Below, in pieces: positions 61,742 through 64,000 of a stretch of DNA of 64,000 nt. This stretch comes from Escherichia coli (GTDB taxonomy: Bacteria; Pseudomonadota; Gammaproteobacteria; Enterobacterales; Enterobacteriaceae). Location of the stretch: NCBI RefSeq assembly GCF_009931435.1, contig NZ_CP043414.1; one strand, given 5' to 3'. The notes under the pieces were generated by a model, which was not told where the DNA came from, searched no databases, and was given only the letters and a program-made list of their open reading frames with translations. The stretch's first letter is position 1, and each line of letters begins with the position of its first letter. A program made the translations under genes and the position numbers.

Positions 61742-63139
61742 ATTTTTACCCGAGTCGCTAATTTTTGCCGCAAGGTGCTAAGCCGCGAGGAAAGCGAGGC
61801 TGAACAGGCAGTCGCCCGTCCACAGGTGACGGTGATCCCGCGTGAGCAGCATGCTATTTCCCGCAAAGATATCAGTGAAAATGCCCTGAAGGTAATGTAC
61901 AGGCTCAATAAAGCGGGATACGAAGCCTGGCTGGTTGGCGGCGGCGTGCGCGACCTGTTACTTGGCAAAAAGCCGAAAGATTTTGACGTGACTACTAACG
62001 CCACGCCAGAGCAAGTGCGCAAACTGTTCCGTAACTGCCGCCTGGTGGGTCGCCGTTTCCGTCTGGCTCATGTGATGTTTGGCCCGGAGATTATCGAAGT
62101 TGCGACCTTCCGGGGACATCACGAAGGTAACGTCAGCGACCGTACGACCTCCCAACGCGGGCAAAACGGCATGTTGCTGCGCGACAACATTTTCGGTTCC
62201 ATCGAAGAAGACGCCCAGCGCCGCGATTTCACTATTAATAGTCTGTATTACAGCGTGGCAGATTTTACCGTCCGTGATTACGTTGGCGGCATGAAGGATC
62301 TGAAGGACGGCGTTATCCGTCTGATTGGTAACCCGGAAACGCGCTACCGTGAAGATCCGGTACGTATGCTGCGCGCGGTTCGTTTTGCCGCCAAATTGGG
62401 CATGCGCATCAGCCCGGAAACCGCAGAACCGATCCCACGCCTGGCTACCCTGCTGAACGATATTCCTCCTGCACGCCTGTTTGAAGAATCGCTTAAACTG
62501 CTACAAGCGGGCTACGGTTACGAAACCTATAAACTGTTGTGTGAATACCATCTGTTCCAGCCGCTGTTCCCGACCATTACCCGCTACTTTACGGAAAATG
62601 GTGACAGTCCAATGGAGCGGATCATTGAGCAGGTGCTGAAGAATACTGACACGCGTATTCATAACGATATGCGCGTCAACCCGGCGTTCCTGTTTGCCGC
62701 CATGTTCTGGTATCCCCTGCTGGAAACAGCACAGAAAATCGCGCAAGAGAGCGGCCTGACTTATCACGACGCTTTCGCGCTGGCAATGAACGATGTGTTA
62801 GACGAAGCCTGCCGTTCACTGGCGATCCCGAAACGGCTAACCACTTTAACGCGTGATATCTGGCAGTTACAGTTGCGCATGTCCCGCCGTCAGGGTAAAC
62901 GCGCATGGAAATTACTCGAACATCCGAAGTTCCGTGCCGCTTATGACCTGCTGGCACTGCGTGCTGAAGTAGAACGCAACGCCGAGCTACAACGTCTGGC
63001 GAAATGGTGGGGTGAGTTCCAGGTTTCCGCGCCGCCGGACCAAAAAGGGATGCTTAACGAACTGGATGAAGAACCGTCACCGCGTCGTCGTACTCGTCGC
63101 CCGCGCAGACGTGCGCCGCGCCGTGAGGGCACCGCATGA
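61742..63139 (+). CDS. pcnB: Poly(A) polymerase I
   Basis: 465 codons from ATT at 61742 ([12 protein letters not shown]...) with GAGG 6 nt upstream; first in-frame ATG is ~55 codons downstream; nucleotidyltransferase GGxVRD motif ([13 protein letters not shown]). Confidence 0.9.
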
Positions 63140-63612
63140 CAGTGGCGTATATTGCTATCGGCAGCAATCTGGCCTCTCCGCTGGAGCAGGTCAATGCTGC
63201 CCTGAAGGCAATAGATGACATTCCTGAAAGCCGCATTCTTGCCGTTTCTTCGTTTTACCGCACCCCACCACTGGGGCCGCAAGATCAACCCGATTACTTA
63301 AACGCAGCCGTGGCGCTGGAAACCTCTCTTACAGCTGAAGAACTCCTCAACCACACACAGCGTATTGAGTTGCAGCAAGGTCGCGTCCGCAAAGCTGAAC
63401 GCTGGGGACCGCGCACGCTCGATCTTGATATCATGTTGTTTGGTAATCAGGTCATAAACACTGAGCGCCTGACCGTTCCGCACTATGATATGAAGAATCG
63501 TGGATTTATGTTGTGGCCGCTGTTTGAGATCGCGCCGGAACTGGTGTTTCCTGATGGTGAAACGCTGCAAGCAAGACTCACTACTTTCCCTCCCTGCCCA
63601 CAGCACTGGTAA
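63136..63612 (+). CDS. folK: 6-hydroxymethyl-7,8-dihydropterin pyrophosphokinase (HPPK)
   Basis: 158-aa [23 protein letters not shown]..., start overlaps pcnB stop by 4 nt; C-terminal ~17 aa differ from K-12 FolK as I recall it. Confidence 0.9.
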
Positions 63613-64000
63613 ACCACATTTCTGGAAAAGCGTATTGGGTAATGCAATGTTGTATAATATTATTTTATAGTTTCAATGAATTAATTCTCTCTCCCCCATC
63701 ATAAAAATCACAAAAAAACAGCATTAAACATATAATTACGGCAAATATATTTTCATTACCTATATTAACTTTTCTCTTTATAAGAGGTTTTTAATGATAA
63801 TGAACCAGTTTATTCTGGGTACTATGCCTCACTCCCGGTATTAGCACTGGATAGCGCTTAACTGGATTCTGTCAGGCTGGGACGGGGCAACAAGAGCATA
63901 CAACGACCAGTCCTTAACGCGTGATTATTAATTTCTACAGCGTATCATCATATTATTTAAATCTGCCCAACCTCACCAAATACATTCATAAAATGCATAA
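63613..64000. other. AT-rich non-coding region downstream of folK (no ORF of 60 aa or more before window edge)
   Basis: Visibly AT-rich with A/T tracts (TATAATATTATTTTATAG, ATATATTTTCATTACCTATATTAAC), in contrast to the flanking housekeeping genes; resembles a curved, H-NS-type regulatory region. Confidence 0.4.

Follow-up and report, generated by a model that had tools for sequence, protein, structure and literature searches.

A rare fimbrial allele class at the folK-panB locus of Escherichia coli, with its probable left edge inside folK

The 64,000-nucleotide (nt) stretch of Escherichia coli DNA analysed here, hereafter the window (GCF_009931435.1, contig NZ_CP043414.1), ends at position 64000, a short distance downstream of a folK gene whose product does not finish like that of strain K-12. 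This raises the question of what kind of boundary, if any, the end of folK represents. The initial annotation, made from the sequence alone, placed a recombination junction in the 3' end of folK, at the edge of a variable fimbrial island. Our analysis indicates that one allelic cassette has very probably replaced another at the fimbrial locus between folK and panB, and that the window stops at the left edge of this replacement. The comparison set comprised 5,426 complete E. coli genomes, and NC_000913.3, translated for FolK, served as the K-12 reference. The folK-panB interval was compared among K-12, Sakai, 33E, ampC_0069, the bat strain A3 (NZ_CP028771.1) and strain 2013C-4282 (L008), which has the E. 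coli folK haplotype nearest to that of the window. NZ_CP098223.1 (L001) is 100% identical to the window over ~62500-64000 and was used as the main stand-in for its continuation; adding 43099 to a coordinate of L001 gives that of the window.

The folK gene (63136-63612, plus strand) encodes 158 amino acids (aa) of HPPK, as identified from its open reading frame (ORF), the Pfam family PF01288 and a match of residues 1-149 to E. coli HPPK in the PDB (E = 1e-89). K-12 FolK ends in ...PDGEMLRQILHTRAFDKLNKW, just as the initial annotation stated, and the last ~17 residues of the window protein differ from it. The internal differences singled out there are also real: K-12 has ALGDIPESHILTV where the window protein carries other residues. 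Overall, the two proteins are 88% identical, with seven substitutions in residues 1-140 and nearly all of residues 141-158 different. In an alignment of 32 enterobacterial FolK sequences, residues 1-140 are mostly invariant, whereas residues 141-157 are hypervariable. Within this tail (codons 141-158, 63556-63609), Leu144 and Leu148 alone are nearly conserved before the invariant Trp158, and Escherichia alone has at least 10 tail classes. Arg83, Arg93, Asp96, Asp98, His116, Tyr117 and Arg122 all lie in invariant columns, and together with the structural match they assign the window protein to the HPPK fold with its catalytic core. Because all catalytic-core residues are kept and the tail alone is swapped, this FolK is very likely functional. 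The AlphaFold2 model (pLDDT 73.7, moderate confidence) has the expected alpha/beta core, a short helix at residues 144-150 and an extended end, and adds little beyond the alignment. Judging from the aligned sequences, the tail appears to tolerate wholesale replacement, and it is for this reason that a recombination block would be able to end inside the essential folK gene.

An end that is rich in proline and one residue shorter than that of K-12 could also be read as a sequencing, assembly or frameshift artefact. However, the exact protein occurs on 671 public contigs and in 14 complete genomes, it keeps the terminal Trp found in all homologues, and the DNA from 63558 onward is non-homologous rather than frame-shifted, which leaves an artefact next to impossible. 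In the two carriers N96 and MFDS1022581, Ser replaces Cys at codon 154 (63595), giving the tail ...FPPSPQHW, and the leader downstream of folK is 96% identical to that of the window; diversification of the cassette has thus taken place within E. coli.

The position of the junction follows from the comparison with 2013C-4282, whose FolK (allele P0015/P0010) has the body of the window protein and a different tail. There are 5 mismatches in 63136-63447 but 20 in 63448-63546, and the two sequences are unalignable from 63558. Identity thus falls in a step, from 98.4% up to 63447 to ~82% right after it, and 63448-63557 can still be aligned at 81.8% to 2013C-4282 and 90.9% to K-12. The gene is accordingly a mosaic of three segments on the plus strand. 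By mismatch counts, the 5' segment (63136-63387) is of E. coli type and nearest to the rare 2013C-4282 haplotype. The next segment (63388-63447, codons 85-104) is identical in the window, 2013C-4282 and a public contig described below (L010), as judged from mismatch maps and the alignment, and is the crossover interval. The 3' end (63448-63612) is linked to the cassette according to the alignments, including that of the 32 tails. All five complete-genome carriers that were examined share this mosaic. These comparisons place a recombination breakpoint in the 3' third of folK, between 63388 and 63448, with homology between the classes gone from ~63558. The junction proposed in the initial annotation is thus borne out by the alignments. 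On the other side, NZ_CP098223.1 and 2013C-4282 are again 98-100% identical from ~117 nt into panB. As they share both flanks, it is the ~7.9 kb between the flanks that differs.

One alternative is an ancient balanced polymorphism within Escherichia, in which the classes diverged in place under frequency-dependent selection, without recent import, and the 3' end of folK marks the limit of purifying selection rather than a junction. The weak pattern common to all tails (Leu144, Leu148 and Trp158) would suit such an origin, whereas the stepwise change against 2013C-4282 would not. Further evidence on this alternative comes from the operon, the flanks and other genera, as described below.

The 3' end of folK and the DNA beyond it are rare. 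Although the folK region is present in 5,424 of the 5,426 genomes, alignments extended past ~63557-63582 in only 14, and a sensitive blastn search with 63560-64000 recovered the same 14 genomes and no others (95.9-100% identity). A matching genome (L024) has a single mismatch to the window in 3,885 nt. Even where folK can be aligned, its identity to any non-carrier genome does not exceed ~94.5%, and it is 84-91.5% for the non-carriers listed. The tail and the 388 bp behind it are therefore not those of the common E. coli references. By the class of tail plus leader, the complete genomes include ~2,950-3,060 of the K-12 class, ~400-437 of the Sakai class and three, at ≥99% identity, of the 2013C-4282 class. 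In the wider public collection, the exact major subunit of the window class is indexed in 1,395 blocks.

The 388 bp at 63613-64000 (no strand assigned) are the first part of a 503-bp intergenic region, an AT-rich non-coding leader of a fimbrial operon whose major-subunit ATG lies at the window-equivalent position 64116. As the initial annotation had described, this sequence is strongly AT-rich and lacks an ORF; none exceeds 31 aa. Its GC fraction is 0.34, compared with 0.523 for the whole window, and is the lowest among all 388-nt windows of the 64 kb. An Rfam scan of the leader and the end of folK gave no match, the terminator scan detected no folK terminator, and a search around the leader for repeats of an invertible switch or att sites returned only short repeats at chance level. 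By analogy with other cryptic fimbrial operons, the leader may be a promoter region silenced by H-NS or a similar protein.

In NZ_CP098223.1, a seven-gene chaperone-usher operon begins 116 bp past the end of the window and runs to panB. The major subunit is encoded first, followed by the chaperone, the usher, three minor subunits and a protein the size of a two-domain adhesin (189, 244, 868, 189, 198, 190 and 410 aa), in parallel with the sizes in K-12, and the same placement between folK and panB is repeated in other carriers. In K-12, the slot holds yadN-yadV-htrE-yadM-yadL-yadK-yadC, which confirms the yadN operon that the initial annotation named 3' of folK, and the same layout is present in Sakai, 33E, ampC_0069, A3 and 2013C-4282. 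The ampC_0069 copy of the yad chaperone gene is disrupted by an IS3-family element (locus L004, 11068-13144). Thus, the locus is occupied in every E. coli strain examined, and what varies is the allele class.

The divergence between these classes is large. The window-type proteins share 37-59% aa identity with those of K-12 and 21-61% with those of the O157 class (21-61% also for the other classes), and for the usher the values are 59% with K-12 HtrE and 54-59% with the other alleles. The usher and the chaperone nevertheless exceed the curated cut-offs of their NCBIfam models: the former reaches 1360 bits with the HtrE-type PRK09828 (cut-off 830), and the latter 368 bits with the YadV-type PRK09926 (cut-off 285). 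The best NCBIfam matches are StaA for the major subunit and StaD for one minor subunit, and another subunit matches YadL/StaE models; all subunit scores are below the curated cut-offs. Its location between folK and panB, its gene order and its HtrE/YadV-type usher and chaperone make this a Yad/Sta-type operon.

These results bear on the island that was initially proposed. A variable fimbrial locus does start at the end of folK, but the variation is an allelic replacement and not the presence or absence of an island. A mobile genomic island that had entered beside folK through site-specific recombination or transposition would explain the abrupt loss of homology, the AT-rich edge and the patchy distribution among strains and genera. 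Nevertheless, no integrase, transposase or tRNA gene is annotated between folK and panB in NZ_CP098223.1, so the segment does not qualify as an island; the flanking repeats are short and at chance level; none of the E. coli examined has an empty locus, and the genes keep their order; and the junction lies inside a coding gene, within a stretch of perfect homology. We therefore consider a mobile island highly improbable. The occupied slot and the full-length homology of the operons also agree with a balanced polymorphism.

In a scan for the usher with one genome per species (100,044 species), a single close relative was found, in Pseudocitrobacter vendiensis (97% aa identity, same synteny); the scan used exact 8-residue peptides and necessarily missed more distant carriers. 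Against NZ_CP098223.1, nucleotide identity in this species is 89% for the major subunit and 94-95% for the chaperone, usher and subunits M and L, 76% for subunit K and 60% for the adhesin. It is 95% for panB, compared with only 80% for pcnB, 81% for folK and 82% for panC, and K-12 panB is only 88% identical to that of P. vendiensis. High identity begins 23 bp before the major subunit and extends to approximately the panB/panC boundary. Between folK and its operon, P. vendiensis carries an additional subunit gene (locus L007, 7832-8404), which is 66-69% identical to the major subunits of P. vendiensis and NZ_CP098223.1 and absent from the E. coli carriers. The labels on cassette proteins of at least 90% identity are those of E. 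coli, E. fergusonii, E. albertii, cryptic Escherichia clades and Pseudocitrobacter. With the operon core and panB at ~95% and the neighbouring genes at ~80%, the cassette must have passed between genera, in either direction. Divergence in place could not give rise to this pattern, and a balanced polymorphism within Escherichia is thus unlikely.

A possible further host came from a search with a PcnB fragment, which returned mostly partial proteins and pointed to Klebsiella, subsequently confirmed at the DNA level. Two Logan contigs (L009, 1-1563, and L010, 1-1511, corresponding to ~62550-64530; runs ERR14980554 and SRR7532931) carry the FolK variant P0002, which is absent from named genomes. 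Their pcnB and 5' folK parts match a Klebsiella variicola genome with one mismatch in 63136-63422, and L010 has 71 mismatches to the window within 63136-63387. From 63388, the contigs do not differ from the window at all (100% identity), and this agreement continues across the tail and the leader as far as the contigs reach into the major subunit gene. The 35 nt at 63388-63422 are identical in K. variicola, E. coli and the cassette and form the longest exact match between E. coli and Klebsiella in folK. This join would fit recombination that needs a stretch of perfect identity. The k-mer size of the assembler is 31, and the shared block is just above it. The contigs would stem either from a Klebsiella that carries the cassette or from a chimeric assembly over the 35-nt block, and the Klebsiella link is thus plausible but tentative. 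A scan of JGI metagenomes for the exact Klebsiella/cassette junction gave 0 matches, and a metagenome scan for the FolK tail gave one contig with the same E. coli haplotype and no new host. In the K. variicola genome examined (L013), folK directly adjoins panB, as it does in two error-rich, Klebsiella-like JGI contigs (L011 and L012), which serve as context only.

Upstream of folK, the pcnB gene for poly(A) polymerase I (61742-63139, plus strand; annotation of the identical stretch of L001) starts with ATT, which we take to be the known non-canonical pcnB start. Its stop codon overlaps the folK ATG by 4 nt (ATGA, 63136-63139), and recombination around this overlap must preserve translational coupling. 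The 5' part of pcnB is typical of E. coli, but a deeply divergent haplotype block common to all carriers begins at ~62470-62550: sliding identity to K-12 is 96-100% and then 83-93% after ~62550, and three carriers (L019, L020 and L022) agree with the window at every position from 62471 onward. The divergence profile across pcnB and folK that the initial annotation called for therefore contains the breakpoint expected in folK, but the divergence from common E. coli sets in well before it.

We estimated synonymous (dS) and nonsynonymous (dN) divergence from short segments and few alleles. Relative to K-12, dS is 0.58 in the 3' half of pcnB and 0.12 in the 5' half, with a dN of 0.004. Across the 3' half of pcnB, folK and panB, dS is 0.30-0.64 against the K-12, 33E, ampC_0069 and Sakai alleles and higher against A3, whereas among those four strains the 5' half of pcnB has a dS of 0.01-0.15; dN is near zero throughout. 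Raised divergence of this kind is the expected pattern beside a neighbour under diversifying selection, and would also be expected of co-imported foreign flanks. Because it begins in the middle of pcnB and also covers panB, several nested recombination events must be superimposed. The gradual fading of divergence into pcnB and panB also agrees with a balanced polymorphism, but the occurrence of identical haplotype blocks in different backgrounds speaks for exchange by recombination.

Farther upstream, in hrpB (56700-58700) and gluQ (60800-61650), patches of 81-92% identity to K-12 alternate with sequence of 98-100%, and the patches differ between carriers. The whole hrpB-folK neighbourhood is thus a recombination mosaic, beyond the end of folK alone. 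In the bat isolate A3 (locus L006, 8139-10012), comparison with the other E. coli alleles gives a dS of >1 for the 3' half of pcnB and an identity of only 95% for PcnB, and the body of FolK corresponds to the E. fergusonii type (P0099). From these sequences, the A3 locus looks like another, independent foreign import at folK-panB. NZ_CP098223.1 and 2013C-4282, which have different cassettes, share a panB gene (28287-28960 of L001) with ~95% identity to its Pseudocitrobacter counterpart and a dS of ~0.6 from the K-12 gene. At least one swap of the cassette has therefore taken place after the foreign panB arrived, leaving that gene in place.

For the allelic cassette replacement, we propose the following course. 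Deeply divergent operon classes would be swapped by homologous recombination, with the flanking housekeeping genes acting as homology arms, and the left crossover would fall where folK is most conserved (63388-63447). With the crossover there, the last third of folK is transmitted as a unit with its tail, the leader and the fimbrial genes. The classes would be maintained by diversifying selection acting on the fimbriae, and the divergence of the 3' half of pcnB, folK and panB would reflect linked hitch-hiking or co-imported DNA.

Several points weigh against this account. The donor of the left end (the 3' part of folK, the tail and the leader) was not found, and the tail and leader of P. vendiensis differ from those of the window. 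The breakpoint at 63447/63448 could have arisen in a lineage of the 2013C-4282 type instead of that of the window. As the window itself stops at 64000, the operon was read from genomes that match it. The narrow basis of the dS values counts in the same direction. Finally, the promoter scan of L001 gave one site against 2.7 expected in shuffled sequences, no better than chance; this site is a weak sigma-70-like match (ATCACA-18-TATAAT, 63707-63736, plus strand; 20608-20637 in L001).

A broader proposal is possible, and we put it forward tentatively. The folK-panB interval may be a site of exchange across genera, where a cassette with its own folK 3' end circulates in Escherichia, Pseudocitrobacter and possibly Klebsiella. 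The crossover would be funnelled into a 35-60-nt invariant block encoding the catalytic loop, because this is the sole stretch of perfect identity long enough between sequences that are ~80% identical. If this is true, the exchange of adhesins routinely rewrites the C-terminus of an essential enzyme as a by-product. For HPPK, which is essential and a drug target, the comparison suggests that the last ~17 residues are freely replaceable except for the terminal Trp.

Among known systems, the closest are the Yad fimbriae of E. coli (b0135-b0141 in K-12; also in the uropathogenic strains CFT073 and EC958), which occupy the same folK-panB slot with the same seven-gene order. The window class differs from them in its folK tail and leader and in the low identity to the K-12 proteins given above. 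The yad adhesin and minor subunits have been reported as the most variable components, with recombination between phylogroups (PMC13245861), and the window class shares this trait. In that study, a strain counts as Yad-negative unless its HtrE shares 80% or more identity with the usher of EC958 (PMC13245861). With 54-59% identity to K-12 HtrE and the other alleles, the window-class usher is very unlikely to reach this threshold. Yad typing by an identity threshold misses whole allele classes; the window class, like the O157 class, would be scored as negative although the locus is occupied, which affects adhesin surveys and genome-wide association studies. Likewise, pcnB, folK and panB carry between-species divergence near the locus and should be masked in typing and phylogeny.

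In Salmonella, the counterpart is the Sta fimbriae (staA-G), whose StaA and StaD models are the best matches of two window-class subunits, with a YadL/StaE match for a third, all below the cut-offs. We take sta to be a seven-gene operon of the same fimbrial clade, and this family presumably represents the folK-panB fimbrial locus in Salmonella. P. vendiensis CPO20170097T and Pseudocitrobacter sp. 73 share the synteny pcnB-folK-operon-panB and the 97% identical usher. P. vendiensis differs in the extra subunit gene, in another FolK tail and leader, in its divergent subunit K and adhesin, and in flanks of ~80% identity. A literature search combining folK, panB and fimbrial retrieved no paper linking folK or panB to a fimbrial junction.

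The nearest parallel for the flanking genes is gnd, which lies beside the rfb O-antigen locus and which Nelson and Selander in 1994 reportedly described as a housekeeping gene subject to hitch-hiking and to import from other genera. As in gnd-rfb, a housekeeping gene at folK-panB adjoins a diversifying surface locus: it is mosaic, its dS reaches between-species values, and in the flanks dS lies above background and falls with distance, with mosaic breakpoints; here, the cassette itself also crosses genera. Unlike in gnd-rfb, the breakpoint lies inside folK, so that part of the coding sequence, the C-terminal tail, belongs to the cassette. The locus is a good example of gnd-rfb-type hitch-hiking and not a new kind of system, and the understanding of fimbrial loci is unchanged by it. 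What the window adds is a rare further allele class of a known variable locus, with a precisely mapped junction and a relative in another genus.
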